A stretch of 56,434 bases of DNA, from the NCBI GenBank assembly GCA_903845295.1, contig CAIMWV010000010.1, positions 1 to 56,434 on the forward strand, written 5' to 3'. The translations under genes and the position numbers were made by a program. Source of the DNA: Candidatus Staskawiczbacteria bacterium (lineage in GTDB: Bacteria; Patescibacteriota; Minisyncoccia; Minisyncoccales; Staskawiczbacteraceae). Below, in pieces: positions 13,921 to 41,925 of this stretch (positions are counted from its first letter, which is position 1; every line of letters starts with the position of its first letter). The notes under the pieces were generated by a model. The model had not been told where the DNA came from, did no database searches, and worked only from the letters and a program-made list of their open reading frames with translations.

Positions 13921-13921
13921 T

Positions 13922-15661
13922 TTATGCGACCTCGCTTTGATAACAACTTTCGCAGTAAACAATTTCCTGGCGGTCCGGAGCATATGAGGTTTCAATTTCT
14001 TTGCCGCATTTTGCACATTTCCGTGAAAATATTTTAATCGGATTCAGCTGTTTGAAACGCACCCTGTCGCGGCAAAGAGGACATTGGCGCGGGATTGGAA
14101 GATCCATCCGGCGGTAGAAATCAAGCTCCATTTTTACCAGCCTATAGTTTTTTCCGCAATCGTCGCATTTTAATATGCCGCCAAGAATCTCGTCTGTAAC
14201 GTCTTTAATATCATCTGCAAAAGAAACCGTTGCCGGTTCATACTCTTTTGCATCGGAATCCCGCCAAACATAGCCGTTGCTGACAGCTTCTTCCTTGGAA
14301 ATCGGGAAAAATTCATAAGCGCTTGTTTCATTATATGCCCACGGAGAAAATTCAGCCGGGAAATATTCTCCGTAACGATATTCTTTCTTCCGCGAATCAA
14401 TATAGGGCACTTCCATCATCTGTTTTTTAATCTTTCCCACCAAATCTTGATAGTCTTTCTTTGAGTATTGTTTATTTAAAATGCAATATTCTGAATTCCG
14501 AATTCCGACGCAGCCGAAAAGGTTTCCCGAGCCATGGCAAGCAAAACTATATTCCAAATCATGCGCATGGTAATTCCAAAAACTGAACTTGATATTATTA
14601 ACAGTAAGGCCGACCCACACCGATTCGTATATCAATTCAGAATTTTCTCCAAATATTGTATAGTCATAAGCGTCTTTCGATGGGCCCAATTTAAGAAGTT
14701 GGCCATATCGGATATTTTCTCCGTTACCTACCTGATAGGAATCGTGCACATTTTTTGAATTAAAAATATAGTCTCCGGTTACGTTTACATTTTTGCGCCC
14801 ATGGAATTGCCTGCGAGGATATTCAAGAAATAATTTTTCTGCTCTTGCCCTGAAATCATTTACGTTTTTCAATGACCCGAAATTCAATTCTTCAAGTTTT
14901 TTTGCGTATTCTTCCTTTGTGTAGGGTTGATTCAATATGTGATATTGCTTGTTACGCAAGTTAATACAGCCTATGCAATTGGAACAGCCTATGAGATCTC
15001 TTGAGAACCAAATGTCCTGTGAATCTTCGCAGTCTTGCGACCAAAACGCACGATAACACTTATTTGCCATCACAGCCTGGTAGCAAAGCTCGCTGTCATT
15101 TGTGAACGCCACGTCAAAACATTCTTTATTTTTTGCCATCGTGTTGGTATAGGCGCAATTTTCACTAAAATCACTTCTGAAGCAAAGGTAGCAATTTTTT
15201 AAATCCGCCGCGCCATTACACCAAGGGCTATTAATCATGGTCGTATGAGAAGTATAGAGGGTTGGATGAGGAACCTCGCGGAAAAGTTGAAGCCACTGTT
15301 CGAAAAATGATTTTTTAAAGTCGTATTCTTTGCCAAATGACTTTGGGTCCCATTCATCCGACCACCATTTTTCTTGCGAATAAATCTTATGCGGATTTCC
15401 CGGAGGATAAAACGTTATCCCCTCTTCCCCAGAATCAAATTTCTGGCGGTATAAAATTCTCCCGCTTGTCCACACGAAGCGCCGCATCATCCTGCACTCC
15501 GGACACCATGTGGGCGAAGGCACTTTCATCTTCTCGCAAAACGCAGAATCATCGGACTCAATCACGAACTCATTATTGCAGTTTTGGCATACTCGCACTG
15601 AGGACTTCGAGTGAGCCTCAGTCGAACTCCCTGCCGAAGTGTTTTTTGTATCGCTTTCCAT
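13922..15661 (-). CDS. Cys-rich zinc-ribbon/repeat family protein, array copy 13 (numbered in transcription order)
   Basis: CQNC..F.IE.DD..F.EK.KVP.PT.CPECR; LFGCVG...YCILNKQY; ends CAKC-x17-CESC-YQSEVA; nested REP in-frame near the N-terminus. Confidence 0.9.
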   Translation of the reverse strand: MESDTKNTSAGSSTEAHSKSSVRVCQNCNNEFVIESDDSAFCEKMKVPSPTWCPECRMMRRFVWTSGRILYRQKFDSGEEGITFYPPGNPHKIYSQEKWWSDEWDPKSFGKEYDFKKSFFEQWLQLFREVPHPTLYTSHTTMINSPWCNGAADLKNCYLCFRSDFSENCAYTNTMAKNKECFDVAFTNDSELCYQAVMANKCYRAFWSQDCEDSQDIWFSRDLIGCSNCIGCINLRNKQYHILNQPYTKEEYAKKLEELNFGSLKNVNDFRARAEKLFLEYPRRQFHGRKNVNVTGDYIFNSKNVHDSYQVGNGENIRYGQLLKLGPSKDAYDYTIFGENSELIYESVWVGLTVNNIKFSFWNYHAHDLEYSFACHGSGNLFGCVGIRNSEYCILNKQYSKKDYQDLVGKIKKQMMEVPYIDSRKKEYRYGEYFPAEFSPWAYNETSAYEFFPISKEEAVSNGYVWRDSDAKEYEPATVSFADDIKDVTDEILGGILKCDDCGKNYRLVKMELDFYRRMDLPIPRQCPLCRDRVRFKQLNPIKIFSRKCAKCGKEIETSYAPDRQEIVYCESCYQSEVA

Positions 15662-15664: not shown

Positions 15665-16285
15665 TTACTTTTTATCCAAAAAATTAATTATCCGTTGTAT
15701 TTTTTTAACTTCCAGCGCATTTTTTTCTTCTCTTCCTTCTCTCCATGCTAGCCCAATTTTTTCTACCCATCCCTTCTTTTCTTCAATCAATAGGTTTGGT
15801 AACAAAACTTTCGCCTTAACTCCTAAGAATTCTTTTTCAATAGAAATATCATTATAATCACCCGCAAAACGGATTTCTTTGCCATGCATCGGAATTACTA
15901 CCTCCTTCGTCTTATCATCAAAAAAACTAATATGGATATCACAATGGGCAGCCCGTGTTGTTTCTGCGTCAATTGGATCAATTCTTAATAAATCATCCTC
16001 TCCATGCGCCTTGGATTTACAAACTAAGTGGCCTTCTTTTTCCAAAAAAATTTTTGCATCTCCAACGTTATCTCTATCGATTATGAAATCAACGTCTTTA
16101 TGATTCCTGGAAATATAACCCAGATAAGCGTCAACGGCAAAACCGGACAAAACAACATATTTCCAATTTTTTTCAGATGCCCGAATCACAATTCTCTTAA
16201 ACAAATCAATTGCCTTTTTAGTTCTTTCATCCATCTCCCCTTCAGCAAGCGGCGGGATTTCTTTTTTTAATAAATTATCGTTCAT
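15665..16285 (-). CDS. Nucleotidyltransferase, aminoglycoside-2''-adenylyltransferase/Lnu-like family
   Basis: SGFAVDAYLG..SR.HKDVDF motif and later DIH. Confidence 0.75.
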   Translation of the reverse strand: MNDNLLKKEIPPLAEGEMDERTKKAIDLFKRIVIRASEKNWKYVVLSGFAVDAYLGYISRNHKDVDFIIDRDNVGDAKIFLEKEGHLVCKSKAHGEDDLLRIDPIDAETTRAAHCDIHISFFDDKTKEVVIPMHGKEIRFAGDYNDISIEKEFLGVKAKVLLPNLLIEEKKGWVEKIGLAWREGREEKNALEVKKIQRIINFLDKK

Positions 16286-16296: not shown

Positions 16297-16386
16297 TTAT
16301 GCCACTTCTGTATTGTAGTATTGCTTGCCCTTCGACAACCCTTCGGCACGGCTCAGGGCAAGCGCTCAGGGCTTCAGTTGCTTTTA
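16297..16386 (-). repeat. Nested REP plus orphan array tail KQYYNTEVA* (16297-16326)
   Basis: Near copy of 13831-13920: TAAATAAAAGCAACTGAAGCCCTGAGCGCTTGCCCTGAGCCGTGCCGAAGGGTTGTCGAAGGGC AAG CAA TAC TAC AAT ACA GAA GTG GCA TAA. Confidence 0.85.
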
Positions 16387-16387
16387 T

Positions 16388-18133
16388 TTATGCCACCTCA
16401 CTATTGTAGCAACTTTTGCAATAAACGATTTCTGGCCTGTCCGGAGCATAAGAAGTTTCAAATTCATTTGGACACTTTTCTTCCCCATGAGAATGATTTT
16501 TCTGCTCGCACATACATTGGCGGTGCCAAAGCTTGATAGGCGTACGCTGGGCAATCCTGGCAAAATGGCGGCAGTTCGGGCACAGTTGCGGAACCGGGAT
16601 GCCCATGCGTTTGTAAAAATTCAGATCGCTCGACGTTACCTTAAAGGCTTCCGTGCATTGGTGGTTGCATTTTCCAGCGTGGGCGCACCCGATTGTTTCC
16701 TTTAAAATTTGTTCATCAACCTGGTCAATCGAGTCCGGAATGTTTTCTGCTTTTAAGGTGATTTTATAATTCTTAGCCGCGAAATCAACCCACCTGTATC
16801 CGTTTTTTAATGCCTCTTCTTTTGACATGGGGAAAAGCTCTTGAGCGATGGTTTCGTTATAGGCGAATCCGTGCATATCCAACGGGAAGGTTGAACCATA
16901 ACGGAATTCCCTTCCCAAAGAGTCTTTGTATGGAAGCGCATCCATTTGCTCTTTGATTCTCGGCACTAATTCTTCATATTCTTCTTTGCTGTATTGTTTA
17001 TTCAAAATGCAATACTGTTTTTTCCGCAAACCGACGCAGCCAAATAAATCAGATGAACTGTGGCAATTTACGCAGTATTGGGCGCGGATTAACTGGTCCC
17101 AACATTCATTTGAAAAAAACACCTGGCTGCACTGGCGGCCGATTGAGGAGCATTCATAAATAAGCTCTGAAAAAGCGGCCCAATATGTAAAATCCATCAC
17201 ATCTTTCCCATCGGTAATTCCAAAAAGATATTTGCCGTCTTCCACTCTTTCGCAATTAAATCCTACCTTCACATTTTTGCATTGCTCTAACCAATTACCC
17301 GAAACATCAGTGCTGTGATTTTCTACAAGACACGGCACGATGTGTTTTGATGAAAATTCTGCCATTTTTTTGCGCATTTCTTCTACTTCCTTGCGACTTT
17401 TTGGCCAAAGTGTTTTAATTTTATCTTTATATTCCTCTTTTGTATATTGCTCGTTGAAAATGCAATAATTCTTATTGCGCAAATTAACGCAACCAAAACA
17501 ATCAGTACAGTTTTTACAATTTAACAAAAAGGCGGAATTTGAGCAGGTACTACATTCTCTTGAATACATCAACCTGTTACAACCATAACAATCAATGCAC
17601 TCAAAACACAGTTCAGACGAATGAATATTATAGTTGTCCATACTATCTTTTGAATCCCAAATTGAAGTGCCGTAAGAACAATTTTCGTTCGTAGAGGCGG
17701 CAAAAATAAGATAACAGTTTTTGTTGTCGCTGGCCCTGTTGGTATATTCGCTGTTTACGTTTGTTCCTTGTTGAATAATTCCCATCCTTGGAACCTTAAG
17801 GAATAAATCTTTAAGCTGCTCGAAAAATGGTTTTTTAAAGTTATAGTCTTTCCCATAAGATTCAGGATCCCATTTGTCAGACCACCAGCAAGAATAGCAA
17901 TAAACAGTGTAGGGGCTTTCCGGCGAATAAAGCAAAATTTTTTCTTTACCGCACAGATTGCACTTTCTTTTAAAAAGAGACCTCTCGCCCCTCCACGCCA
18001 AACGTTTGACCAGCCTGCACTCCGGACACCACGTCGGTGGCGGCACTTTAATCTTCTCATAAAAATTAAAATCGTCGGGCTCAATCATGAACTCCTTTTT
18101 ACAGTTTTGACATGTTCTTTTTTGGCTTTCCAT
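16388..18133 (-). CDS. Cys-rich family protein, array copy 12
   Basis: Same conserved blocks; internal CNLC-x17-CYSC; ends YCKSCYNSEVA. Confidence 0.9.
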   Translation of the reverse strand: MESQKRTCQNCKKEFMIEPDDFNFYEKIKVPPPTWCPECRLVKRLAWRGERSLFKRKCNLCGKEKILLYSPESPYTVYCYSCWWSDKWDPESYGKDYNFKKPFFEQLKDLFLKVPRMGIIQQGTNVNSEYTNRASDNKNCYLIFAASTNENCSYGTSIWDSKDSMDNYNIHSSELCFECIDCYGCNRLMYSRECSTCSNSAFLLNCKNCTDCFGCVNLRNKNYCIFNEQYTKEEYKDKIKTLWPKSRKEVEEMRKKMAEFSSKHIVPCLVENHSTDVSGNWLEQCKNVKVGFNCERVEDGKYLFGITDGKDVMDFTYWAAFSELIYECSSIGRQCSQVFFSNECWDQLIRAQYCVNCHSSSDLFGCVGLRKKQYCILNKQYSKEEYEELVPRIKEQMDALPYKDSLGREFRYGSTFPLDMHGFAYNETIAQELFPMSKEEALKNGYRWVDFAAKNYKITLKAENIPDSIDQVDEQILKETIGCAHAGKCNHQCTEAFKVTSSDLNFYKRMGIPVPQLCPNCRHFARIAQRTPIKLWHRQCMCEQKNHSHGEEKCPNEFETSYAPDRPEIVYCKSCYNSEVA

Positions 18134-18171: not shown

Positions 18172-19857
18172 TTACGCTATTTCTGCATTGTAGCACTGTT
18201 CACAGTAAATTTTGAATTTCTTTTGACTTTCTGGTGAGTATGAGGTTTCTATGTGTTTACCACAATTGGCACATGCTCCCGCCCAAAGATTCCTTGGGTT
18301 TCGCGTCGCCATTCGTCCTGCATGCCTACAATTAAAACATTGCGATGGAAGTGGGAGTTTGTTTCTCTTATAAAAATTTACTTCTCGATTGATGAGTTTA
18401 AAATTTTTTTGGCAACTTGTACAAGCAAGTGTTTCATTCATAAGCTGATCGCTATATTCTTCCGGGTTTTTCGGTAAATTTTCATGTTCGATAGTTCCTT
18501 GTCCTTTTGTGCTAGGAATATCATCTTTCCATGTAAAGCCTTGGGCCAGAGCTTCTTCTTTGTTTAGTGGCATATACTCATTAACTATTGCTTCGTTATA
18601 ACCAAAAGGGCTTAATTCTTTTGGAAAAAATAATCCCCAATCGCTAGTCTTTTTCAAATTTTCAATGATTTTTTCTTTTAATTCTTCGTATTCTGCTTTA
18701 CTATATTGCTTGTTCAAAATGCAATAAGATTTTTTGCGAAGTCCATAGCACCCGAAAAGATTGTTGCAGTTATGACAATTATCCGAGTAGCAAACATCGT
18801 GTGAATCAACTATCTCGTGGGAACCAATAACCCTATTACTGTTTAGCATGGTCAAGACTTGATAACATTCTGACAAATCACCGGTAAAAGATACGTCGTA
18901 TGAATCTATTGCCTTTCTTACTGTAAAACAAAATTTAGAATCCTCTCCGCTTTTTATATCAAAAGAATAATGAACGTTATGTGCATTGTATATATGATTC
19001 CCAGAAACATTGTTGTTGTGCGAACCGAAGAAAGCGCGCTGGGGAATTTTTGTACGTAAAACATCTCGCTCTTTTAAAATATAATCTATACTTGATTTTT
19101 CTTTTAGCGGATACTTTGATAGAAAATTTTTGTACTCTTCTTTTGTAACTGGCTTATTAAAAATGTTGTAAGACTTATTTATTTGTCCTACACAACCAAT
19201 ACAATTTAAACAATTTCTACAATCAAAAAGTCCAATACTGTCTACGCAACTCTCGCACTCTTGCGAATAAAAAAGTTTCGATGATTCTAAGCAATCGACG
19301 CATTCGTAACAAGATTCTGATTTAAATAGGTATAGATTATCTACCGAATCTCGGCAATTCCAAACAATATGACCATAATCACAGTCTTCATCGTTTAGAC
19401 CACCGAAGATAAGATAGCAATTTTTGCTTTGATTGATTTGGTTTGCATACTCACAATTCTCGGTCTCGGAATTCATCACGTTAACGCGCGGAACTGTATT
19501 GGATAATCTGGCGAGTTGAGTAAAAAATGGCTTCTGGCTATCAAAATCAATCCCGTAAGTCATGGGGTCCCAGTCATCACTCCACCATTCAGATACACTA
19601 TAAACAGGAAAGAGTGCGTCGGGACCATACGCAGAGACAATCATGTCGCCAGATTTACTAGATGGCCTTTTATACAATGTTTTAAAATTTCTAAAAAGCA
19701 TACGCAACTGCTGACGGCATTGTGGACAAATTTCCGGCGCTGGGACTTTCATTTTTTCGTAGAAAGCAAAATCATCGGACTCAATTACGAAATCCTTTTT
19801 GCAGTTTTGGCAGACTCGCACTGAGCCTGCCGAAGTGTTTTTGGTTTCCGATTTCAT
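18172..19857 (-). CDS. Cys-rich family protein, array copy 11
   Basis: Family blocks; in-frame REP encoding TSAGSV at 19819-19837; ends YCEQCYNAEIA. Confidence 0.9.
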   Translation of the reverse strand: MKSETKNTSAGSVRVCQNCKKDFVIESDDFAFYEKMKVPAPEICPQCRQQLRMLFRNFKTLYKRPSSKSGDMIVSAYGPDALFPVYSVSEWWSDDWDPMTYGIDFDSQKPFFTQLARLSNTVPRVNVMNSETENCEYANQINQSKNCYLIFGGLNDEDCDYGHIVWNCRDSVDNLYLFKSESCYECVDCLESSKLFYSQECESCVDSIGLFDCRNCLNCIGCVGQINKSYNIFNKPVTKEEYKNFLSKYPLKEKSSIDYILKERDVLRTKIPQRAFFGSHNNNVSGNHIYNAHNVHYSFDIKSGEDSKFCFTVRKAIDSYDVSFTGDLSECYQVLTMLNSNRVIGSHEIVDSHDVCYSDNCHNCNNLFGCYGLRKKSYCILNKQYSKAEYEELKEKIIENLKKTSDWGLFFPKELSPFGYNEAIVNEYMPLNKEEALAQGFTWKDDIPSTKGQGTIEHENLPKNPEEYSDQLMNETLACTSCQKNFKLINREVNFYKRNKLPLPSQCFNCRHAGRMATRNPRNLWAGACANCGKHIETSYSPESQKKFKIYCEQCYNAEIA

Positions 19858-19860: not shown

Positions 19861-21615
19861 TTATACTACCTCGCTATTATAGCAACTTTCGCAGTAAATT
19901 ATTTCAGGACGTTCCGGCGCATACGGCGTTTCAAATTCATTCGCACAATTCGCACTGCCGTGAGAATGATTTTTCTTGTCGCACATGCATTTTCTGTGCC
20001 ATAGCTTAAGGGGGTTTCTTTGGGCGAGGCGTTCGTAGTGCCTGCAGTTGGGGCACATCCTTGGTAAGGGTAAGTTCGCCTTTCTGTAGAATTGCAGCTC
20101 TTCTTTGATTATTTTAAAGGCGGTGGTGCATTGGTGGTTGCACTCACCTTTGTGGCCACATCCTATTACCTTGCCGATAATATCATCGCCGACATCTTTG
20201 ATATGGTCCGGCAAGTCTTGCGATAGTATGTCTATTTTGTAGGTTTTCTCTTCCGGATCTTTCCAGCGATAACCTTGCGGCATGGCCTGTTCTTTGGTTA
20301 AGGGAAAGTACTCTTGGGCAATGGTTTCGTTGTAGGCAAAGGGGCTCAATTCTGAAGGGAAAAATTCGCCATATTTATAAACTCTTCCCTGCTTATCGAC
20401 ATACGGCATATCTGCCATCTGTTTTATAATTTTGGAAACCAGCTCCTCATATTTTTCTTTAGTGTATTGCTTGTTCAAAATGCAGTATTGCTTGCTTCGC
20501 AGTCCCGTGCAGCCAAAAAGATTCTGCGATCCCGTACAGTTTAGAGAATAAGAAACATTTGTGCTACCCTTGATAACCTGGCTGAACAGATAATAGGCGT
20601 TTTCGGTGGATTCAAAGCCAAGCGAAAGCGATTCGTACAGCATTTCACCGCGGCTTAAGCCATAAACATCATAAGAATCCTTCAGCCCGATGCCTATGTA
20701 GTGAGAGAAGGCGGAATTTTCGTAGTTATCTCCGGAAAAATCAAAGCACTCCTTGCAATTCTTTGAATTTTTAAGGTTATCCCCCGTAGATTGGGCTGTC
20801 TTAATCATCTGGGCATATTTGCGCAGCGCTCCTTTTCGGAGGTCGTTATACTTTTCAATGTGCTCTTGTAAAACCGCGTAGCTTCCTAAGTCAATCTGTT
20901 TCAGCTTTGAAAGATATTCCTCTTTGGAATAAGGCTGGTTAAACAGATAGTATTGCTTGCCCCGGAGGTTCACGCTGAAAGAGCAGTTCTGGCAATTCCT
21001 GCAGTCGAAAAGGAAATTTGAGTCTGTGCACGCATCGCAATACTGGGAATACTTCAAGTTGTACGAATTCTCGCATTGGACACACTGGTAGCAGCGCTCG
21101 TTACGCGTGCCGGTGTAACAATCAATGCTGTCTTTACACATGTAAATGCGGTTGGAATACAAGATGCCCTCGCTCTCCCTGCCAGCAATTTGCAAGTAGC
21201 AGTCTTTGGCCCCTGACATATAATTGCAGTAATCAGAATTGCTCGGCGTGGTATTAAAAAGCGCCATGGAAGGCGTGCGCTGCAGCAACTCCAAAAATTG
21301 GGTCATGAAGGGGCGGGAGAAATTATAAGCAACGCCTGCAGCCATGGGATCCCAGGAATCCGACCACCAGCAGTCTTGACAATAAACGACGAACGGCGAG
21401 TCGGCCGGATAAATCGAAACCATCTGCTTGCCGCACTGTGCACAATTCCGGCGGTACAGCGCCCGCTCATTTCTCCAAGTCATCCTGCGCTGGTTGCGGC
21501 ATTCTGGACAAAAAGTCGGCGGAGGCACTTTAATCTTCTCATAGAATGAAAAATCATCGGGCTCGATGATGAAGTCTTTTTTACAATTTTGGCAAATTTT
21601 GGTTTCTTGTTCCAT
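19861..21615 (-). CDS. Cys-rich family protein, array copy 10
   Basis: Family blocks; ends YCESCYNSEVV. Confidence 0.9.
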   Translation of the reverse strand: MEQETKICQNCKKDFIIEPDDFSFYEKIKVPPPTFCPECRNQRRMTWRNERALYRRNCAQCGKQMVSIYPADSPFVVYCQDCWWSDSWDPMAAGVAYNFSRPFMTQFLELLQRTPSMALFNTTPSNSDYCNYMSGAKDCYLQIAGRESEGILYSNRIYMCKDSIDCYTGTRNERCYQCVQCENSYNLKYSQYCDACTDSNFLFDCRNCQNCSFSVNLRGKQYYLFNQPYSKEEYLSKLKQIDLGSYAVLQEHIEKYNDLRKGALRKYAQMIKTAQSTGDNLKNSKNCKECFDFSGDNYENSAFSHYIGIGLKDSYDVYGLSRGEMLYESLSLGFESTENAYYLFSQVIKGSTNVSYSLNCTGSQNLFGCTGLRSKQYCILNKQYTKEKYEELVSKIIKQMADMPYVDKQGRVYKYGEFFPSELSPFAYNETIAQEYFPLTKEQAMPQGYRWKDPEEKTYKIDILSQDLPDHIKDVGDDIIGKVIGCGHKGECNHQCTTAFKIIKEELQFYRKANLPLPRMCPNCRHYERLAQRNPLKLWHRKCMCDKKNHSHGSANCANEFETPYAPERPEIIYCESCYNSEVV

Positions 21616-21665: not shown

Positions 21666-23381
21666 CTATGCGACCTCGCTGTTATAACACTGCTCGCAGT
21701 AAATTATTTCTTTACGATCTGGGGCATAGCTGGTTTCGAATTTATTGGGGCATCGTTCTGTATGATGCGGGTGATTTTTATCGCACATGCACTGGCGGTA
21801 CCAAAGCTTAACCGGGTTTCTCCAGGCAAACCTGCTGTAATGTCGGCAATTCTGACATATTCGGGGCAACGGAATATTAAGCTTTCTGTAAAACTGCAGT
21901 TCTTGGTTGGTGATTTTAAATACTCCTACACATTCGTGTGCGCATTCTCCTTCGTGAGCGCAGCTAATGACCTCTTTGGTGATGTTTTCATCAACATTGG
22001 CAATGTCATCGGACACATCAGCACTGGACATGGTTGCTTTAAATTGTTTCTCTTTGGAATCGCGCCAAACAAACCCCTTATTTTCAACTTCCTCTTTTGT
22101 GAGAGGAAAATGTTCATAGGCAAAGGATTCGTTGTAAGCCAAAGGACTCATCTCTACTGGGAAGAACTCTCCGTACTCCCCAGTTGATTTCATGTGCTCA
22201 ATAATTTTTGGAACTATCGCCTCGTATTCTTCTTTGGTATATTGTTTATTAAAAATGCAATATTGCTTGTTGCGCAAACTGATGCAACCGAATAGGTAAG
22301 AAGAATTCTGACAGATATAACAATATTGCAAATTGGCATTGGAAGGATAACAGAATGCGGAAAACGCCACGTTATACGCCCCATCGCCCACAACAAGCGA
22401 ATTATAAATTAATTCTGACCCGCTCCCAAAATTACTGTGATCATATGAATCTTTCGCAGGACCCAATGTAAAGTTTTGGCAGTATTTAACATTTTCGCCA
22501 CCAACAATTCTCCAGCAATTCTTAGCGTCTTTGGAATCAAAGATATAGTCTCCGGAAACATTGGCGTTATGACGGCCGTGAATAAATTTATTTGGAAACT
22601 GCGCCCAGTGCCCAATACTCTTCTCTCTTAAAGCTTCGACATTAGTCCTTGAAGTTACCCCAATCTCTTCTAATTTTTCGAGATACTCTTTTTTGGAATA
22701 AGGCTGATTAAATATGTGATAAGACTTATTTTTTAAATTAGCGCAGCCAAAACAATTATTGCAACCAACACAATTCTTGCAGAACATCGCCTCGCTGCAT
22801 CCTTCGCAATCTATAGAATACAGCGTTTTATAGCACTTGGTGATATTAACGCAGTCATAACAAAGCTCAGACTCGTTATAAATATGGCAGTCAAAAATAT
22901 CTTTGGATTTAGCTCCCCAAATAGAATATGCAGAATTCTCCACATATGAGATGCCGAAGCTAAGATAACAATCTTTAGGTTCAGTAGCATTAGCACAGTA
23001 ATCACTGTTCAGCGGCTTAGAAAGGTTCCTGGACATAAGAGGAACTTGCCTCATTAGTTCTTTAAACTGTTCAAAAAATGGACGTGAAAAATCATAATTT
23101 CGTCCGTATTGCAGCGGGTCCCAGGAATCTGAATACCACTCTGACACTTCCATTATTTTAACCGGAGAATCCTCATGAAACATAGAAAAAATTTCCTTGC
23201 CATGGATATCTTTTTTCCTCATGAGCTTCCACTCGTTGCGCCACGAAAACCGTCTTTGCATCCTGCACTCAGGGCACCATGTGGGCGGCGGTACTTTTAT
23301 TTTTTCATAAAACGCAAAATCATCGGGTTCGATGATGAACTCTTGTTTACAATTCTGGCACTGGCGCGTTTCTTGATCCAT
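21666..23381 (-). CDS. Cys-rich family protein, array copy 9 (start MDQETRQC)
   Basis: Start chosen by alignment with paralogs; followed by orphan tail YNSETA* at 21637-21657. Confidence 0.9.
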   Translation of the reverse strand: MDQETRQCQNCKQEFIIEPDDFAFYEKIKVPPPTWCPECRMQRRFSWRNEWKLMRKKDIHGKEIFSMFHEDSPVKIMEVSEWYSDSWDPLQYGRNYDFSRPFFEQFKELMRQVPLMSRNLSKPLNSDYCANATEPKDCYLSFGISYVENSAYSIWGAKSKDIFDCHIYNESELCYDCVNITKCYKTLYSIDCEGCSEAMFCKNCVGCNNCFGCANLKNKSYHIFNQPYSKKEYLEKLEEIGVTSRTNVEALREKSIGHWAQFPNKFIHGRHNANVSGDYIFDSKDAKNCWRIVGGENVKYCQNFTLGPAKDSYDHSNFGSGSELIYNSLVVGDGAYNVAFSAFCYPSNANLQYCYICQNSSYLFGCISLRNKQYCIFNKQYTKEEYEAIVPKIIEHMKSTGEYGEFFPVEMSPLAYNESFAYEHFPLTKEEVENKGFVWRDSKEKQFKATMSSADVSDDIANVDENITKEVISCAHEGECAHECVGVFKITNQELQFYRKLNIPLPRICQNCRHYSRFAWRNPVKLWYRQCMCDKNHPHHTERCPNKFETSYAPDRKEIIYCEQCYNSEVA

Positions 23382-23386: not shown

Positions 23387-25168
23387 TTATGCTATTTCTG
23401 ATTGATAACATTCTTCGCAATAAACTATTTCCGGCTGGTCGGGGGCGTATGAGGTTTCAAATTTATTGGGGCAATGTCCATTTTTATGGAAATGTTCTAT
23501 CGTATTGCGGTATGCGTCATTTTCTGACTTTGAACCCCCGCATTGGCATTGCCTTTTATATAAATCTAATTTGGTACGCTGGTTAATGCGTTCAGAGTGG
23601 CGGCAGTTTGAACAAATTCTCGGCAGGGGCAAATTCATGCTGCGGTAGAATGCCAGCTCATCGGGCAATATACGGAATGCTAGAGTGCATTGGTCGTTAC
23701 ACTTTCCCTCATGAGCACAACCTATAATTTCTGCAGTAATAGAATCCGACACATCCTTGATGTTGTCGGGTAGCTCGCTCGCCTGTTTAGTAATTTTATA
23801 ATTGCGTTGGGCGGTGTCGCGCCAGGCAAAACCAAACTCTTCGGCCTGTTTCTTGGTAATGGGAAAATTTTCCTGTGCCAATGTCTCGTTATAGGCAAAC
23901 GGCGAAAATTCTACCGGAAAATATTCGCCGTATTTATACACCCTCCCCTTTGCATCCGTGTAGGGCTTGTCATCCATGTGTTTCTTGATCTTCGAAACAA
24001 GTTTCTCATATTCTTCTTTGGTATATTGCTTGTTCAAAATACAGTACTCTTTTTTGCGCAACCCGATGCAGCCAAATAAATTAGACGAAGACTGGCACAT
24101 GTAAGAATATTCAATATCGTGCACATTCTCTTGCACGTTGTAGCAAAACTTAATATTGTTAGTTCCTAGTCCGCAGGCAGCACACTCATAAATCTGCTGG
24201 TTGCCCGCTCCCCACGCAGTATAATCATAACAATCTTTGCTTCCGGGCGATTCCTGCACATATTGGCAGTAATGCAGGTTTTCGCTTTCGCGCACCAAGA
24301 ATGATTTATTCACGTTACGGGAGTGTGAAATATAATTGCCGGAGACATTCGTATTCGAAAGCCCATTGATATACTTATTCGGGAACTTCAACCAAAATTC
24401 TACAGCTTTCTTACGCATCTCTTGCAGCGCCGCATTTGAACCGATATTAAACTCTGCAATTTTTTTAAAGTAATCCTCTTTATTATATTTCTCATTGAAA
24501 ATGTAAAAAGATTTTTTACGCAATCCGACGCAGCTAAAACAATTATTTATGCCTACGCAGTCCTTGCAGAAAGCAATATCGTAAGATCCCTCGCACTGCG
24601 AAGAAAAAATGGCGTTACGGCAAGACGTCAACCAAAAGCCCTCATAACAACGTTCTGATTTTAAAACGTGTGAACCGTCCACGCAATTCTTCACGTCTCC
24701 CAAGCCGTTGCCGTACATGCAATCCTCTGCCCTCTGGCCATTGAAAGTCAGGTAGCAATTTTTAGGATCGGTAAAATTGTTTACGTAGTCGCTGTTTACG
24801 CCATTTACTACATTCAAATTTTTCAAGGGTACTGTATGCAACAATTCTTTAAACTGCTCGAAGAATGGCCTCTCATCGAAGTTTTTGCCAAACATCATCG
24901 GGTCCCATGAGTCGGTAAGCCAGACTTCTTTTTCATAAACTTTTACCGGCGCATCGGGCGCAAATGCTGAAAAAATATCTTTGCCCGAACAGTCACTTCT
25001 CCGTTTAAATAAAAACCGCTCGTTTCTAAAGGCCATCCTACGTTGGGCACGGCAGAGCCAACAGAATGTCGGCGGCGGTACTTTTATTTTTTCGTAAAAC
25101 GCAAAATCATCGGGCTCGATGACGAACTCCTTTTTACAGTTTTGGCAAGTTTTGGTTTCTTGTTGCAT
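23387..25168 (-). CDS. Cys-rich family protein, array copy 8 (start MQQETKTC)
   Basis: Family blocks; start chosen by alignment. Confidence 0.9.
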   Translation of the reverse strand: MQQETKTCQNCKKEFVIEPDDFAFYEKIKVPPPTFCWLCRAQRRMAFRNERFLFKRRSDCSGKDIFSAFAPDAPVKVYEKEVWLTDSWDPMMFGKNFDERPFFEQFKELLHTVPLKNLNVVNGVNSDYVNNFTDPKNCYLTFNGQRAEDCMYGNGLGDVKNCVDGSHVLKSERCYEGFWLTSCRNAIFSSQCEGSYDIAFCKDCVGINNCFSCVGLRKKSFYIFNEKYNKEDYFKKIAEFNIGSNAALQEMRKKAVEFWLKFPNKYINGLSNTNVSGNYISHSRNVNKSFLVRESENLHYCQYVQESPGSKDCYDYTAWGAGNQQIYECAACGLGTNNIKFCYNVQENVHDIEYSYMCQSSSNLFGCIGLRKKEYCILNKQYTKEEYEKLVSKIKKHMDDKPYTDAKGRVYKYGEYFPVEFSPFAYNETLAQENFPITKKQAEEFGFAWRDTAQRNYKITKQASELPDNIKDVSDSITAEIIGCAHEGKCNDQCTLAFRILPDELAFYRSMNLPLPRICSNCRHSERINQRTKLDLYKRQCQCGGSKSENDAYRNTIEHFHKNGHCPNKFETSYAPDQPEIVYCEECYQSEIA

Positions 25169-25173: not shown

Positions 25174-26955
25174 TTACGCTACCTCTGCTTGATAACATTG
25201 TTCGCAGTAAATTATTTCCGGCTTATCGGGAGCATAGCTGGTTTCAAATTCATTGTGGCATTGGCCATCCCCGTGCTGATGCTTGGCTGTATTCGAATAA
25301 ACGCCGTTTAAAGACTTACCGCCTGCGCATTGGCATTTCCTGTGCCAAAGCTTCGAGGGATTGCGCTGGGCAAGGCGTTCGTAGTGCCTACAATTTGGGC
25401 AGAGATGCGGCAGAGGGATATCCATTGCCTTATAAAACTGGAGCTCTGAAGGAATTATCTTGAATGCCGTTGCGCACTGATGGTTGCAGCTGCCAGCGTG
25501 TTCACAAGAGATTATTTCAGACGTAACAGAATCCGGCACTTGCGAAATCGTGTCAGGCAAATCTTTTGATTTTATTGTTGGAGCGTATTTTTTCTCATTG
25601 GCAACTTTCCACTTAACGCCCTGCGCCTGCGCCTGCTCCCGGCTCAGGGGCGAGAGCTCCTGCGCCACTGTTTCGTTATATGCAAAAGGAGAAATTTCGG
25701 CTGGGAAAAATTCTCCGTACTTATATATTCTCCCGCCCATGTCTTTATAGGGCATGGTGTCCATGTGCTCGATAATTTTGGGGACAAGGGCTTCGTATTC
25801 CTCTTTGGTATATTGCCTATTTAGAATGCAGTACTGCTTGCTGCGCAGGCCTATGCAGCCGAATAAATATGAACAGTTGTGGCAGTTGTTCGAATACTGG
25901 ACATCGTGGCAACTGAAAATGAACCGGGAAAACATGCATCTGCTTCCCGGATAAATGGTTGAAACCTCGTAGGCCAGTTCCGATTTCAGGCCAAGGTGGT
26001 CGCAATCAACGCAGTTCTTTACATTAGAATAGGTAAGCCAGAGGTATCTTGAATCCTCGGCACCGCCGAAAACATCGAATACTTTATAACAGTTCTTCGT
26101 TTCCTCAAGATTGTCCCCTACCGAATTGACGGCCCGGATTATGCGGGCAAATTTTCTAGGATACTTAATCGAATGCCCGGCAAACCTCTTCTTAAGATTC
26201 TGTATCGCGGCGTAACTGTTAATGTTAAGCTCTTTCATTTTTTGTTGGTACTCTTCTTTGGAAAGCTGTTCGTTAAAAAGGCAGTGTGCTTTATTGGATA
26301 AATTCACGCAACCCAAACAGTCGTGGCAATTTTTGCAGTTAAACAAGAAACTGGAATCGTAGCATCCTTCGCAGTAGCGGCTGTACTTGAGCTTGGTGCA
26401 GTTTAGGCAATCCACTGTTTCGTAATTTTGCTCACATTTGGTATCCCAGTAGCAATCGGCACATTCTTTACTGTTGAAAATAAATGCCGAATAGTTGGTA
26501 TTCTCATTAAAATCGCCGCCCACCACTAAATAACAATTTTTATTTCCTTCGGTGATGCTGCAATAATCGCTGTTTACGGGGTTTATGTTCAGAACCGCTA
26601 TGTCAGGGACTTCTCTCCACAGTTCTTGAATTTGGGAGAAAAATGGCTTTTTAAAATCGTAGTCCCTGCCAAACGTTATTCCGTCCCATGAATCGCCCCA
26701 CCACGCTTTGTGGCAATAGACTTTCTGCGGATTATCCGGCGAAAAGACGGAAAACGTTTCCTCTGAATGCCCGGGCGCCTCGCATTTCCTCTTGTATAGT
26801 GTGCGCTCATTCCGGAAAACCATTCTCCTGATTTGCCTGCACTCCGGGCAAAAAGTCGGTGCTGGCACTTTTATCTTTTCATAAAACGCAAAATCATCGG
26901 GCTCGATAGTGAACTCCTTTTTGCAGTTTTGGCAAGTTTTGGTTTCTTGTTGCAT
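25174..26955 (-). CDS. Cys-rich family protein, array copy 7
   Basis: Family blocks; ends YCEQCYQAEVA. Confidence 0.9.
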   Translation of the reverse strand: MQQETKTCQNCKKEFTIEPDDFAFYEKIKVPAPTFCPECRQIRRMVFRNERTLYKRKCEAPGHSEETFSVFSPDNPQKVYCHKAWWGDSWDGITFGRDYDFKKPFFSQIQELWREVPDIAVLNINPVNSDYCSITEGNKNCYLVVGGDFNENTNYSAFIFNSKECADCYWDTKCEQNYETVDCLNCTKLKYSRYCEGCYDSSFLFNCKNCHDCLGCVNLSNKAHCLFNEQLSKEEYQQKMKELNINSYAAIQNLKKRFAGHSIKYPRKFARIIRAVNSVGDNLEETKNCYKVFDVFGGAEDSRYLWLTYSNVKNCVDCDHLGLKSELAYEVSTIYPGSRCMFSRFIFSCHDVQYSNNCHNCSYLFGCIGLRSKQYCILNRQYTKEEYEALVPKIIEHMDTMPYKDMGGRIYKYGEFFPAEISPFAYNETVAQELSPLSREQAQAQGVKWKVANEKKYAPTIKSKDLPDTISQVPDSVTSEIISCEHAGSCNHQCATAFKIIPSELQFYKAMDIPLPHLCPNCRHYERLAQRNPSKLWHRKCQCAGGKSLNGVYSNTAKHQHGDGQCHNEFETSYAPDKPEIIYCEQCYQAEVA

Positions 26956-26958: not shown

Positions 26959-28623
26959 TTAGGCTATTTCGCGCTGGTAATCTTCCAGGCAGGCTATTTT
27001 TTTAAATCCAAGTTCGGGACTGTAATAATGTTCAATCTCTTTTTTACATTTATAACAAACTCCTTTTTGCGGTATTGCCATTAAACTAAAAGGCTTAAAG
27101 CGCTCTAATGTGCGCCAGTCAAAATGTCGGCGTGGAAGCGGAATTTCATGTTCCCGGTAAAACGACAGCTCATCCTGAGTGATATTGTAGCTAAGTTTTG
27201 TTTCCGGGCACAGGATGCGTTTTTTAGTGATATCATCTGTAACTTGGTCAATGGTGTCCGGCAAGTCGTCTCCGCTTATGATATTTTCATAGTGAGGTTC
27301 AACGGTTTTTTCCCATTTGGCGCCAAACTTTAGGGCTTCTCCCTCTGACATGGGAAACATCATATGAGCCAGAGAAAGATTGTAGCCCGAGTATGCGGCT
27401 GACAGCGGGAAAAAATTACCCCACTCCTCGTTCTTTTCCATAACGCTTTTGATTTTTTCAACAAGCTCTTTGTATTCAGCCTCAGTATATTGTTTGTTTA
27501 AAATGCAATATTTCTTTTTGCGCATTCCAACACAGCCAAAACAATATTCGCACTCTTCACAATTATCTAAGTAACTGCTATATCGGCAGCTTGTAGTATA
27601 AAGATTACACGTATTGCCATAACCGCCAAATTGGTCCATCACGCAAAGAGCGCCTTTCTCTAGACTATAACAACCCGATAAATCAATAGATTCTTTATTG
27701 CCATACCCCCTAAAATTATATCGGCAATTTTCTGATTCTTCCAAAAAATAACATTGATAGCAATTTTTATCGTTGTTAAGGAAGTTTCCTGTGGAATTCA
27801 CCGCCTGAACATTATAATTTTGTCGGTGCACAGCATCCAGTCCAATATGCTGCCAAAAATTTCTTTTCAGGTTTTGGATAGCTGCCCATGATTTTAAATT
27901 ATATTCTTGTAGTTTTTTATCATATTCTTCTTTTGAATATTGCTTATTTAGAATGCAATATTTTTGATTTCTCAAATTCCAGCACATAAAACAATCCTGG
28001 CAGTTCCGGCAATCATACAAAAAGGAACTGTCCATACAATCACGGGAATTAAAAGAATATTTTAAATTATAGCTTTTAAAACAATAAAAGCAATCATACG
28101 AACGCTCAAGATTCCAACAAAATGTAAGATCAATAGAATTTTTACAACTAATCACGCGATAGCCGTAGTTTATGAATTCGCACCAAGCACCCGATCTAGT
28201 TAGATACGTGTCCTTGGATTCCCAGATATCGTCGGTCCAGTCACAATTAACATTTTTAGTACCAGTTTGGTGCGGGTGCGGAACCTTTGATTGCAATTCA
28301 ACTACCTGATCAATAAACGGACGCGAAGAGTCGTAATCTTTTCCATACGTGAGCGGGTCCCATTTGTCTGACACAAATTCGTTGCGCTCGTATATCGGAA
28401 AAGGAACTGATTCAGGAAGAACCGTTATAATTGTTTTACCGCTTAATGCAGATTTTGTAATTCTAAACCTTCCATTCACCCAAAAAGCCAAACCATACTT
28501 ATAACGGCAATAAGGGCACAAAACCGGCGAAGGCAAGTCCATCTTCTCGTATAACGCAAAATCATCGGGCTCAATGGTGAAATCTTGTTTACATTTTTGG
28601 CAAACTTTGGTTTCTTGATCCAC
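26959..28623 (-). CDS. Cys-rich family protein, array copy 6 (divergent subtype, GTG start)
   Basis: CQKC..F.IEPDDF, CILNKQY twice, CPET...FY...IPLPRRH. Confidence 0.88.
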   Translation of the reverse strand: MDQETKVCQKCKQDFTIEPDDFALYEKMDLPSPVLCPYCRYKYGLAFWVNGRFRITKSALSGKTIITVLPESVPFPIYERNEFVSDKWDPLTYGKDYDSSRPFIDQVVELQSKVPHPHQTGTKNVNCDWTDDIWESKDTYLTRSGAWCEFINYGYRVISCKNSIDLTFCWNLERSYDCFYCFKSYNLKYSFNSRDCMDSSFLYDCRNCQDCFMCWNLRNQKYCILNKQYSKEEYDKKLQEYNLKSWAAIQNLKRNFWQHIGLDAVHRQNYNVQAVNSTGNFLNNDKNCYQCYFLEESENCRYNFRGYGNKESIDLSGCYSLEKGALCVMDQFGGYGNTCNLYTTSCRYSSYLDNCEECEYCFGCVGMRKKKYCILNKQYTEAEYKELVEKIKSVMEKNEEWGNFFPLSAAYSGYNLSLAHMMFPMSEGEALKFGAKWEKTVEPHYENIISGDDLPDTIDQVTDDITKKRILCPETKLSYNITQDELSFYREHEIPLPRRHFDWRTLERFKPFSLMAIPQKGVCYKCKKEIEHYYSPELGFKKIACLEDYQREIA

Positions 28624-41908: not shown

Positions 41909-41925
41909 AAATATATTAAAGCATA

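Follow-up and report, generated by a model that had tools for sequence, protein, structure and literature searches.

A tandem array of zinc-module, twin beta-solenoid proteins alongside T4CP-like ATPases in a Candidatus Staskawiczbacteria genome

The window analysed here, a 56,434-nucleotide stretch of contig CAIMWV010000010.1 from Candidatus Staskawiczbacteria bacterium, carries a long run of genes transcribed in one direction, with every gene from position 43416 down to 13922 on the minus strand. Thirteen of these co-directional genes, all within the window, code for paralogs of one family that are 32-50% identical to each other. The focal gene (16388..18133) is an open, ATG-started reading frame coding for 581 residues, 41 of which are Cys, and matches the family profile with E 3e-274. 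The other copies, each recognised as an open reading frame matching the profile, are at 13922..15661 (579 aa), 18172..19857 (561 aa), 19861..21615 (584 aa), 21666..23378 (conserved start near 23378 in a frame that extends to 23420), 23387..25168, 25174..26955 (593 aa), 26959..28623 (554 aa; divergent in the tree and lacking the second N-terminal finger), 28734..30467 (577 aa, 42 Cys), 32814..34532, 34529..36265 (the most divergent, on a long tree branch), 36262..38052 and 38058..39833. Together the 13 copies occupy about 22.8 kb of the 779-kb genome.

Several other genes lie within or at the head of the array. A short, soluble T4CP-like (TrwB/VirD4/HerA-type) ATPase is coded within it (30491..31948; the frame extends to 32095, and orthologs start at its residue 50), and a long T4CP-like ATPase (39905..41908) stands at its head, preceded by a membrane protein gene (41926..43416). 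Both ATPases score above the 20.5-bit cut-off of TrwB_AAD_bind (PF10412), with 33.9 bits for the short and 57.0 bits for the long one, and all NCBIfam T4CP models are far under cut-off for both. The long ATPase also has a CxxC-x17-CxxC finger of its own at residues 464-497 (zf_Tbcl_2, 48.9 bits; TIGR04272, 50.4 bits). The membrane protein has no Pfam match and corresponds to positions 156-291 of phrog_5156, and the ATPases match positions 387-813 of the same family, suggesting that it is the split-off N-terminal part of a T4CP-like protein; the long ATPase thus has a separate membrane-protein gene, and the short one has no membrane partner of its own. Also in the array are a gene with a nucleotidyltransferase fold (15665..16285; PF10706, 24.6 bits, NCBIfam far under cut-off), which none of 74 other family loci has, so that within the set examined it is peculiar to this array, and a CutA1-like small protein (32199..32507; PF03091, E 3.5e-13) with homologs in four of the 74. 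Family and ATPase genes overlap or are separated by roughly 3-110 nt, and larger gaps occur only around CutA1.

The focal protein reads, from its N-terminus, as a zinc module (residues 1-95; 17849..18133), beta-solenoid 1 (residues 126-240; 17414..17758), beta-solenoid 2 (residues 276-400; 16934..17308), an acidic mid domain (residues 401-477; 16703..16933) and a second zinc module (residues 478-581; 16391..16702). A first-pass annotation, made from the letters alone, had described an N-terminal zinc block echoed at the C-terminus, with two Cys-repeat tracts between them that end in a common motif, and all of these elements are present in the translation. The N-terminal block comprises C8..C11, F15, I17, D21, FYEK at 24-27, VP.P at 30-33 and CP.CR at 36-40, and continues with C58..C61-x17-C79..C82; its echo spans residues 483-575. 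The closing motif, of the form FGC..LR.K.YCI.N.QY.KEEY, ends tract 1 as FGCVNLRNKNYCIFNEQYTKEEY (residues 213-235) and tract 2 as FGCVGLRKKQYCILNKQYSKEEY (residues 364-386), and a 67-nt stretch of DNA corresponding to it occurs 24 times in the window, at two per gene. Modules and tracts alike prove to be homologous pairs: in hhalign comparisons from the 13-paralog alignment, the N-terminal (1-95) and C-terminal (478-581) modules match with 99.4% probability (E 8e-22, 77 columns), and tract 1 (96-245) matches tract 2 (246-400) with 99.9% (E 1.3e-33, 139 columns), against 0.1-1.3% for the cross-controls (N/T1, N/T2, C/T1, C/T2, N/mid and T1/mid).

The terminal modules resemble known zinc-finger domains. 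In the N-terminal module, finger 1 (C8, C11, C36, C39) is zf_Tbcl-like, and the motif CxxC...F.I...FY..K..P..C..CR is visible in all 13 copies; only two paralogs are matched by zf_Tbcl itself (PF13451), at 17.8 and 22.2 bits under a cut-off of 24, and the focal copy is not. Finger 2 (C58-x2-C61-x17-C79-x2-C82) has exactly the CxxC-x17-CxxC spacing of TIGR04272 and PF23477 (zf_Tbcl_2). The focal protein scores 14.9 bits with PF23477 at residues 51-84, under the 27-bit Pfam cut-off, the paralog at 13922..15661 scores 27.0 bits (at the cut-off) with Pfam and 23.9 bits with NCBIfam (cut-off 36), and the remaining paralogs score 14.8-22.5 bits. Zinc has been measured by ICP-MS in two Methanosarcina mazei small proteins with this domain, according to PMC12704099; there the domain makes up free small proteins, whereas here it caps the ends of a protein of 580 residues. 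The C-terminal module has a CxC...HxH...C insertion, and its C483, C540, C554, C572 and C575 are 97-99% conserved. Zinc binding is plausible at two to four CxxC...CxxC sites, all of them in the terminal modules, and nowhere else. Both modules are basic, with net charges that average +2.3 and +2.5 and a pI of about 8-9; the solenoids are mildly acidic, and the mid domain has a mean net charge of -6. The mid domain also has a conserved YG..FP...SPFAYNET.AQE.FP...G..W and low entropy (1.3 bits at 401-440), with G413, P417, Y425, N426 and W448 each at least 94% conserved among 456 family sequences. No signal peptide or transmembrane segment is visible in the 13 copies by inspection of N-termini and a crude hydrophobicity count, and we predict that this modular protein is cytoplasmic.

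The core of the protein had been proposed to be a beta-solenoid, and structure prediction bears this out in the form of two solenoids. The AlphaFold2 model (pLDDT 89.2, pTM 0.89, with confidence lowest, at pLDDT 64-82, in the variable tracts) has a strand at every third residue in solenoid 1; in solenoid 2 it has strands over residues 265-376 and a capping helix at 383-399. Tract 1 repeats every 12 residues, with autocorrelation peaks at lags of 12, 24 and 36, and in tract 2 this repeat is degenerate. A fold search with solenoid 1 returned 40 chains at Z of at least 5, and almost all of the 50 chains listed are beta-solenoids; solenoid 2 has beta-solenoid matches at Z 5-8. Solenoid 1 superimposes on the passenger domain of TibA (Z 9.1, rmsd 1.9 A, 94 residues), which together with that of Ag43 represents other narrow beta-solenoids to which it can be likened, and on the antifreeze protein TmAFP (1ezg_A; Z 8.2, rmsd 2.6 A, 82 of 82 residues), which likewise has a Cys-rich 12-residue coil with the Cys at fixed register. 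TmAFP is a secreted protein whose Cys form a disulfide core and which binds ice through a Thr-x-Thr face. At 13% identity and without a sequence-level match, the likeness goes no further: the focal protein has no visible signal peptide, is flanked by zinc fingers and has dispensable Cys, and its exposed registers are variable rather than Thr arrays or a Thr-Cys-Thr ice-binding face.

Weaker matches, of solenoid 2 and of the whole model, are dominated by left-handed beta-helix acyltransferases, gamma-carbonic anhydrases and pentapeptide-repeat proteins (Z 5-7, mostly rmsd 8-10 A; Foldseek E of at least 6e-3 and TM of at most 0.16), and Foldseek with the full model gives E of at least 0.1 against hexapeptide-repeat left-handed beta-helix transferases. 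Neither the Hexapep nor the Pentapeptide model of Pfam gave a match at the thresholds applied, and the likeness to these enzymes and repeat proteins is one of fold class only. The DNA mimicry that the pentapeptide-repeat matches might suggest was set aside, the matches being weak and the solenoids just mildly acidic. Polar residues are conserved at equivalent solenoid positions (D166/D314 and N227/N378); we found no catalytic constellation, with every His, Ser and Lys column under 93% conserved. Among solved structures, a sequence search with the family profile gave a single match, to a LIM-type Cys-rich protein at E 0.66.

Most tract Cys are part of the buried, every-third-residue core register of the solenoids and are not metal ligands. 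Across 456 non-redundant sequences, tract Cys are conserved at anything from 3 to 96%, co-vary mostly at r<0.4 with all partial combinations present, and are exchanged for Ser, Leu or Val; the Cys/Leu/Ser register has an entropy of 1.38 bits, against 1.96 and 2.55. True ligand sets in the same proteins behave as all-or-none units (r 0.8-0.98): the control finger residues C61, C79 and C82 co-vary at r 0.97-0.98 (patterns 1111 in 245 sequences, 1000 in 119 and 0000 in 84), and finger 2 is missing as a whole unit in 203 of the 456. Because tract Cys are lost piecemeal and zinc-finger Cys are lost as units, we reject the suggestion of the first-pass annotation that the tracts form a high-capacity metal or Fe-S scaffold.

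Divergence among the copies is concentrated in the tracts, as had been noted, rather than spread uniformly. Across the 13 copies, residues 121-200 and 241-360 have a column entropy of 1.8-2.2 bits, compared with 0.7-1.0 bits at 1-40, 0.8 at 361-380 and 0.9 at 561-580. Paralogs are 0.29-0.34 identical in the tracts; for the zinc modules and closing motifs the figure is 0.49-0.61. The expected variable surface in a constant frame also emerges, in that coil positions 7-11 of tract 1 reach 2.6-3.1 bits and positions 1-5 only 1.2-2.2, with faces assigned from the sequence register and the DSSP string rather than from three-dimensional coordinates. The variable face is 0.69 identical within orthogroups and 0.24 between paralogs; for other parts of the protein the values are 0.72-0.76 and 0.47-0.51.

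The VLR-like recognition repertoire that had been suggested is not supported. In a quick IQ-TREE run with seven related genomes, the 13 copies of this genome (G000) never cluster; each pairs with orthologs of other species, the ortholog pairs have SH-aLRT of 100, and 13 changes are needed to account for the 13 copies. Nonsynonymous divergence is no higher in the tracts (dN 0.13-0.15) than in the zinc modules (0.15-0.16), and since synonymous sites are saturated (pS 0.69-0.84), omega is just bounded, at roughly 0.1 or less. Diversification by a diversity-generating retroelement or by gene conversion is rejected, as we found neither a reverse transcriptase nor near-identical DNA tracts between copies, for which DNA repeats are at most 84% identical. 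With the face conserved among orthologs, the copies older than speciation, and no reverse transcriptase or conversion, the repertoire is fixed and not hypervariable. The paralogs would then offer distinct binding specificities on a common frame, as a set that stays fixed; the variable face is under purifying selection in each ortholog lineage. A repeat protein with a constant frame, one variable specificity face and a multigene set is shared with LRR repertoires; the fold is not, being a straight beta-helix and not a curved horseshoe of LxxLxLxxN-type repeats, and no LRR model matched in Pfam and NCBIfam scans at the thresholds used.

The family is large, with at least 2,366 clusters at 50% identity, almost confined to Patescibacteria, and accessory: genomes of a single genus have anywhere from 0 to 23 matches. 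It has no annotation and its core has no Pfam model, our literature searches found no paper on it, and the ESM Atlas returned just the family's own unnamed clusters. In PHROGs, three paralogs gave marginal matches only, to families of unknown function. A tblastn search of 50,697 phage records yielded one 82-residue match to a zinc module, so the family is not phage-borne, and the name 'putative phage protein' used in one source is contradicted.

We therefore turn to the genes that accompany the family. Among 74 family loci from other species, 24 have a T4CP-like ATPase within 8 kb, compared with about 5% predicted from genome-average density; in 23 of the 24 every ATPase frame is on the family strand, and 19 of the 74 hold the short type. 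Related genomes also have arrays directly adjoining the membrane-protein and long-ATPase pair. Orthologs of the short ATPase (85-100% identical) are present in 10 of 13 family-positive and none of 18 family-negative related genomes, a link of gene order and co-occurrence among genomes that are related and not independent; the best matches in family-negative genomes are at most 49% identical, and orthologs in 25 other loci are 64-95% identical. No short ATPase was seen in three family-positive genomes (G206, G207 and G209, which are 85-95% complete). A phylum-wide search at E<=1e-150 found three genomes besides this one, all family-positive; the matched frames are 728-764 aa, so that the short type is indistinguishable by score at that distance. 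No ATPase lies within 8 kb at 50 of the 74 loci, and with many arrays and one ATPase per genome such loci are expected, although that falls short of proof.

The long ATPase (31 of 31 related genomes) and the membrane protein (29 of 31) are core genes that also occur in family-negative genomes, and so neither needs the family. Stand-alone zinc-module genes adjoin a T4CP-like ATPase in none of the 18 family-negative genomes; the module by itself thus shows no tie to the ATPase, and its candidacy as a docking element is the weaker for it. The neighbouring ATPases lack the combination of T4SS or relaxase linkage and an N-terminal membrane anchor. Complex prediction between the short ATPase core (residues 22-438) and the full focal protein gave 0.00 in two runs without controls, and speaks neither for nor against the link.

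A second recurring neighbour is the Hsp70 system. Unbiased clustering of neighbours recovered DnaK in 15, DnaJ in 14 and either in 22 of the 74 loci, with a recurring gene order of DnaK, long ATPase, family copies, short ATPase and DnaJ. In two of five genomes from other taxonomic families, the distance between dnaK and a family copy is 3.5 and 7 kb. The association may be partly lineage synteny; in this genome dnaK is on another contig (C27), not by the array.

The best explanation as a whole, which we put forward tentatively and which could well be mistaken, is that family proteins are interchangeable specificity subunits of T4CP/HerA-FtsK-type hexameric ATPases. They would work with the neighbouring ATPases, above all with the short soluble one, which is co-inherited with them. 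The parts that stay constant (zinc modules, closing motifs and mid domain) would attach to the machinery that all copies share, and the solenoid face, which differs by paralog, would select a different client each time, be it a protein or a nucleic acid, to be remodelled or translocated with energy from ATP. Protein clients are suggested by how often the module sits between dnaK and dnaJ. Our working analogy is a DotL-type coupling protein, in which one hexameric T4CP ATPase has several specificity partners encoded together; the Legionella DotL coupling protein works with the adaptors IcmS, IcmW and LvgA. No homology to the adaptors was seen, and unlike the DotL system the dedicated ATPase here has no membrane domain and is not next to virB4.

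More doubtful is the larger proposal that Patescibacteria have an unrecognised ATP-driven client-selection machine, made up of a soluble, highly conserved, T4CP-derived hexameric ATPase, often inside a dnaK-dnaJ operon, and a set, peculiar to each genome, of 4 to more than 20 interchangeable receptors with twin solenoids and zinc caps, each of which would recognise a client of its own by the beta-helix face of that paralog. If this were so, the set would account for about 3% of a 0.78-Mb genome, a large outlay that defines the lineage, and client selection may be linked with life as an episymbiont, by choosing proteins or nucleic acids that are remodelled, exported or imported. Whatever the mechanism, a tiny Patescibacteria genome devotes 2.9% of its length to 13 copies of a single uncharacterised protein. 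The family is also a natural beta-helix specificity scaffold, the specificity positions of which the contrast of orthologs with paralogs has already mapped. Finally, a dedicated subtype inherited with the family offers a starting point for work on the thousands of 'orphan' T4CP-like ATPases in the phylum, which PMC12102498 counts while leaving their role open.

Family proteins could instead be cargo, that is, effectors passed by the T4CP-like ATPases to a T4SS and into the host bacterium that these episymbionts live on, which we consider unlikely, and less likely than a role as specificity subunits. The family is accessory and multi-copy and differs between close species as effector repertoires do, its genes adjoin T4CP-like ATPases, chaperone genes flank many arrays, and a VirB4-type channel ATPase is coded in 31 of 31 related genomes, the present one among them. 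However, VirB4 occurs just as regularly where the family is missing, and in the present genome it is on a different contig, so the two do not co-vary; the zinc-stabilised ends and rigid solenoid would make a poor substrate for an unfolding translocon; and old orthogroups under purifying selection are unlike arms-race effectors. The published evidence can be set on both sides: in favour, PMC12102498 proposes a non-conjugative role for the T4SS of Patescibacteria and counts only 148 of 5,713 T4CP homologues near virB4; against, it reports for one cultured species a T4CP homologue that is dispensable for epibiotic growth, with other T4SS genes essential.

It is improbable that these proteins serve the Hsp70 system as co-chaperones or holdases, each for its own clients, binding certain unfolded or assembling proteins by zinc modules and solenoid faces and handing them on to DnaK and DnaJ, with unfolding left to the ATPases. 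The placement of dnaK, dnaJ or both by family genes, on the same strand and in several rearranged forms, and its recurrence in other taxonomic families, favour such a role, and zinc centres are familiar in chaperones: DnaJ binds clients via a Cys-rich zinc domain, and Hsp33 uses a zinc centre. Yet neither gene is found at 52 of the 74 loci, dnaK is not by the array described here, the family is accessory and DnaK and DnaJ are universal, and Pfam and NCBIfam scans revealed no J domain or other chaperone domain. We give a similarly low probability to nucleic-acid handling, in which basic zinc ribbons would bind DNA or RNA and aid FtsK/TrwB-type ATPases in DNA uptake, export or segregation. The zinc modules are indeed basic, the family of the neighbouring ATPases is annotated with a DNA-binding domain (TrwB_AAD_bind), and a homolog is called 'Zn ribbon nucleic-acid-binding protein' in one source; that name, though, was assigned automatically, the solenoids are acidic and so is the mid domain, generic zinc ribbons are the only nucleic-acid-binding domains in the Pfam and NCBIfam scans, and thirteen specificities are hard to fit to bulk DNA handling.

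Less probable still is a defence or conflict system in which each paralog would sense another kind of invader molecule, with the HerA/T4CP-like ATPase as effector or hub. Accessory, patchy distribution in tandem arrays would suit defence, and the ATPases weakly match mad8 (E 6e-12 and 9e-14) and HerA (1e-7) models; no PADLOC model matches the family, however, with three paralogs tested, the arrays have no nuclease, protease or toxin domain (the nucleotidyltransferase-fold gene here being unexplained), the orthogroups are old and slow-evolving, and the long ATPase is core. A metal or Fe-S scaffold is very improbable, notwithstanding the high Cys content, the CxxCxxCxxC runs at residues 176-185 and 206-215 and a gene for divalent-ion tolerance (CutA1) inside the array, as the tract Cys are variable and replaceable, the homologous positions of solenoid 2 are mostly without Cys, and Cys numbers range from 27 to 42 among the paralogs.

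Longer fused forms of the family also exist, in two proteins of 1,727 and 1,114 aa, about three and two unit lengths, with no accessory domain in either. As a separate observation, no RNA run was listed for the focal gene, and five DNA runs from two studies contain the gene or part of it.

The ORF at 16388-18133 (-) is intact, with 581 codons and 41 cysteines, and its translation contains every motif that the first-pass annotation quoted for it. Twelve more ORFs on the same strand, of 554-606 codons and with 32-50% identity to this copy, are its paralogs, and a profile of the 13 copies matches exactly those 13 places in the whole genome (779 kb in 35 contigs, 95% complete), all on the same contig; the organism itself occurs in sediment communities. 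The N-terminal block is indeed echoed at the C-terminus, as had been proposed, with profile-profile comparison of the N module (residues 1-95) and the C module (478-581) giving a probability of 99.4% (E 8e-22). The two repeat tracts are likewise homologous, tract 1 (96-245) matching tract 2 (246-400) at 99.9% (E 1.3e-33), and six mismatched sub-alignment pairs used as a control reached only 0.1-1.3%. Each tract ends, as described, in the motif FGCV.LR.K.YCI.N.QY.KEEY, and the window has 24 stretches of DNA that code for it, two to a gene. Divergence is concentrated where it was said to be: 13-copy entropy is highest in the two tracts and takes its lowest values over the closing motifs and the terminal fingers.

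AlphaFold2 applied to the whole protein, with an alignment of 124 sequences, gave a model with a mean pLDDT of 89.2 and pTM of 0.89, falling to pLDDT 64-82 in the variable tracts. It predicts a hairpin-plus-helix zinc module (residues 1-95) and a helix (103-113), followed by very short strands in which each third position is a strand residue (about 120-230). Two helices (232-261) then lead to another series of strands (265-376), a further helix (383-399), a small domain of mixed type (400-480) and, C-terminal to this domain, a second zinc module. Column-similarity autocorrelation reveals a 12-residue period in tract 1, with peaks at lags 12, 24 and 36, and only weak periodicity in tract 2. Fold searches with the whole model returned no significant match (Foldseek best E 0.1, VIA best Z 3.8), though the matches, non-significant as they are, were all beta-solenoids; a separate model of residues 96-400 (pLDDT 78.8) matched 40 chains at Z≥5, and Foldseek with that model found nothing at E≤1e-3. 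Solenoid 1 resembles TibA (Z 9.1, rmsd 1.9 Å, 94 residues superposed), Ag43b (Z 8.5) and the Tenebrio antifreeze protein 1ezg_A (Z 8.2, rmsd 2.6 Å over all 82 residues, 13% identity), and solenoid 2 resembles left-handed beta-helix enzymes, ice-binding proteins and adhesin heads (Z 5-8, rmsd mostly poor); in this modeled structure the matches reflect fold class, not kinship. The predicted strands and these matches agree with the beta-solenoid core suggested in the first-pass annotation.

All genes from 43416 down to 13922, a block of roughly 29 kb, lie on the minus strand, in the order membrane protein (41926-43416), long T4CP-like ATPase (39905-41908), four paralogs, a CutA1-like gene, short T4CP-like ATPase (30491-31948), seven paralogs, a nucleotidyltransferase-fold gene and the last paralog. 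Family genes and ATPases either overlap or stand roughly 3-110 nt apart, the spacing being wider only around CutA1, and both flanks of the block are housekeeping genes. The CutA1 divalent-ion-tolerance homolog (32199-32507, -; Pfam E 3.5e-13) is curious beside zinc-rich proteins, and CutA1 homologs occur in 4 of 74 family loci elsewhere. The nucleotidyltransferase-fold gene (15665-16285, -; 206 aa) is weakly similar to aminoglycoside-2''-adenylyltransferase and lincosamide nucleotidyltransferase models, but is not called a resistance gene because the scores are far below cut-offs; none of the 74 loci has a homolog.

These 74 loci, from Patescibacteria of many classes, were retained from a scan in which every GTDB species was represented by one genome and 750 stretches were confirmed. 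Five (L024, L030, L036, L054, L058) are on contigs assigned to Gammaproteobacteria, Bacteroidales and Burkholderiales; these have 29-46% G+C, L054 has the gene order of the Patescibacteria loci, and the contigs are probably mis-binned or their bins mislabelled. A word-indexed protein search gave at least 7,989 matches among 8,000 candidates scored, nearly all named 'hypothetical protein', the best having 70-89% identity and coming from MAGs labelled Staskawiczbacteria, Parcubacteria, Paceibacterota, Liptonbacteria and similar. The number of representative clusters recovered by an exhaustive profile search was 5,531 at E≤1e-3 and 2,366 at E≤1e-30, and the best 150 are almost all full length. 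In an even sample of Patescibacteria, 34 of 201 genomes have any family match, including an unpublished genome (G154) with a weak finger match only; strong full-length matches occur in just 13 of the 201, this genome included, nearly always several in each, and the remaining matching genomes carry a free-standing zinc module of ~100 aa alone. Among 18 other genomes of the genus, 11 carry 4-23 matches each, and the seven that carry none are 90-99% complete; only one of 12 other genera of the order has the family. Since close genomes hold either 4-23 matches or none, the family is accessory, expanding or vanishing as a block. No fused forms were found apart from two apparent read-through multimers.

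The family is genetically coupled to T4CP-like ATPases. Twenty-four of the 74 loci, 52 of which have two or more family genes, include such an ATPase, with every ATPase ORF on the family's strand in 23 of the 24; 19 loci have a short-type ATPase. Chance proximity is expected at about 5%, by arithmetic from three such genes per ~0.8-Mb genome. Across those lineages the short ATPase is 64-95% identical, a conservation far above the family's. Among 13 family-positive related genomes, 10 have short ATPase orthologs of 85-100% identity (one partial, at a contig end), and G206, G207 and G209 are family-positive without one; the same query reached at most 49% identity in 18 related genomes that lack the family. 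One 824-residue PHROG (5156) is matched at its front by the membrane protein and at its back by the ATPases, and the membrane protein and long ATPase (39905-43416) therefore represent a split coupling-protein-like gene. They are a core pair, with the long ATPase in 31 of 31 related genomes and the membrane protein in 29, and arrays start directly beside the pair in at least seven. A third copy, fused and about 830 aa, is on another contig (G000:C27:25924-27246), and nearly all relatives carry one. The short ATPase lies in a 535-codon ORF (30488-32095, -), and 25 of 25 orthologs begin at its codon 50 (31948), at a conserved APPPPELPIYG, the probable translation start.

We tentatively favor, with somewhat less than even confidence, a reading in which the family proteins are interchangeable specificity subunits of the T4CP-like ATPases; their constant parts would dock to the ATPase, and the variable solenoid face would recognize clients, paralog by paralog. 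That they are instead T4SS cargo is unlikely, though not negligibly so. VirB4 is uninformative here because it is present in all 31 relatives; a published survey of 2,918 Patescibacteria genomes counts 5,713 VirD4-like genes, places just 148 of these near virB4, and raises exaptation as a possibility (PMC12102498).

The top neighbors by unbiased clustering of the 74 loci are DnaK (15 loci), DnaJ (14) and CysS (11), and the arrangement DnaK - long ATPase - family - short ATPase - DnaJ recurs, with rearranged variants of it. Insertion of the array and its ATPases between dnaK and dnaJ is seen at L035, L041, L050, L059, L062 and about 15 more loci, followed by a conserved 200-aa membrane protein and cysS on the opposite strand. 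In the genome under study dnaK is at the start of another contig, not at the array. Of five family-positive genomes from other taxonomic families, two have dnaK at distances of 3.5 and 7 kb from a family gene, two have it elsewhere, and one has it at contig ends. The chaperone neighborhood hints at protein clients for the proposed specificity subunits; that the proteins are themselves Hsp70 co-chaperones seems rather improbable. Equally improbable is a role in nucleic-acid handling. In sequence profile searches with family proteins the zinc fingers alone match, and no column of the family alignment outside the fingers hints at catalysis.

The variable face is conserved within ortholog lineages. 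In the 12-residue coil of solenoid 1, entropy is 2.6-3.1 bits at positions 7-11 and 1.2-2.2 at positions 1-5, so one side of the helix varies, in keeping with the variable surface in a constant frame that had been envisaged. Placing this genome's 13 copies on a quick IQ-TREE takes 13 changes, and therefore no two of them are sisters; most pair with other species' orthologs at SH-aLRT 100. The tree covers 58 full-length copies of this genome and of seven related ones, 4 of 62 profile matches, under 500 aa, having been left out. Identity within orthogroups (39 ortholog pairs from 11 well-supported groups) and between paralogs (78 pairs) is 0.69 and 0.24 for the variable face, 0.75 and 0.49 for the conserved face, 0.72 and 0.47 for the core, and 0.76 and 0.51 for the zinc modules. 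Nei-Gojobori dN in 10 ortholog pairs is no higher in the tracts (0.128 and 0.154) than in the zinc modules (0.156 and 0.146), and the linker (241-275) alone is raised, at 0.346; omega is only bounded, at roughly 0.1, because synonymous sites are saturated (pS 0.69-0.84). DNA repeats between copies (60-84% identity) are restricted to conserved blocks and include no inverted repeats, and no reverse transcriptase was found in the genome. A hypervariable form of the LRR/VLR-type repertoire suggested earlier is thus not supported by the ortholog pairing, the unraised tract dN and the lack of a reverse transcriptase hit, and the array is not a diversifying system; because the paralogs are ancient, the variable face is conserved in orthologs and signs of diversification are absent, it represents an old, maintained set of different specificities. 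A role as defence sensors is quite improbable.

The role of the cysteines was assessed in a family alignment of 456 sequences (511 gathered, 501 of 480-700 aa retained, filtered at 80% identity). An optional second N-terminal finger behaves as a co-varying ligand set, with C61, C79 and C82 correlated at r 0.97-0.98 and C58/C61/C79/C82 patterns of 1111 in 245 sequences, 1000 in 119 and 0000 in 84; the first C-terminal finger gives r 0.80-0.91. Tract cysteines mostly give r<0.4, with all partial patterns common and Ser, Leu and Val as substitutes, and the solenoid 2 columns equivalent to solenoid 1 cysteines hold Cys in 3-44% of 124 sequences. Of the three registers of solenoid 1, the Cys/Leu/Ser one, which takes in every third residue, is best conserved (1.38 bits against 1.96 and 2.55), and matching positions of the two solenoids have conserved polar residues (D166/D314, N227/N378). 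On the simplest reading, tract cysteines are small residues buried in the core of a very narrow beta-helix. A metal or Fe-S scaffold, the other role offered for the tracts, is very improbable, as their cysteines co-vary weakly and are exchanged for Ser, Leu or Val, unlike the all-or-none finger set. Only the end modules, at two to four CxxC...CxxC sites, are expected to carry zinc; one report describes zinc binding, by ICP-MS, of a domain with CxxC-x17-CxxC spacing in a pair of small Methanosarcina mazei proteins (PMC12704099).

Zinc ribbons, beta-solenoids and multigene specificity repertoires are known kinds. Their combination as zinc-capped twin solenoids, with a 12-residue Cys-core helix in a bacterial cytoplasmic protein and a dedicated, co-inherited orphan T4CP-type ATPase, appears undescribed; no Pfam or NCBIfam model for the family core was found, and literature searches found no paper on the family. 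Free-standing two-finger zinc-module genes (loci L093-L110, from 18 family-negative genomes of the phylum sample; about 90-137 aa) are widespread in Patescibacteria without the full-length family, and in those 18 genomes they never adjoin a T4CP-like ATPase. Two similar short plus-strand ORFs, 13843-14037 (+) and 16321-16536 (+), are antisense to paralog 3′ ends and were rejected as separate genes, being merely the conserved C-terminal coding block read in reverse complement. At the left end of the contig, an ORF at 84-935 (+) has a recombinase zinc beta-ribbon domain (Pfam E 1.7e-8) and may be what remains of a serine recombinase at the edge of the contig.
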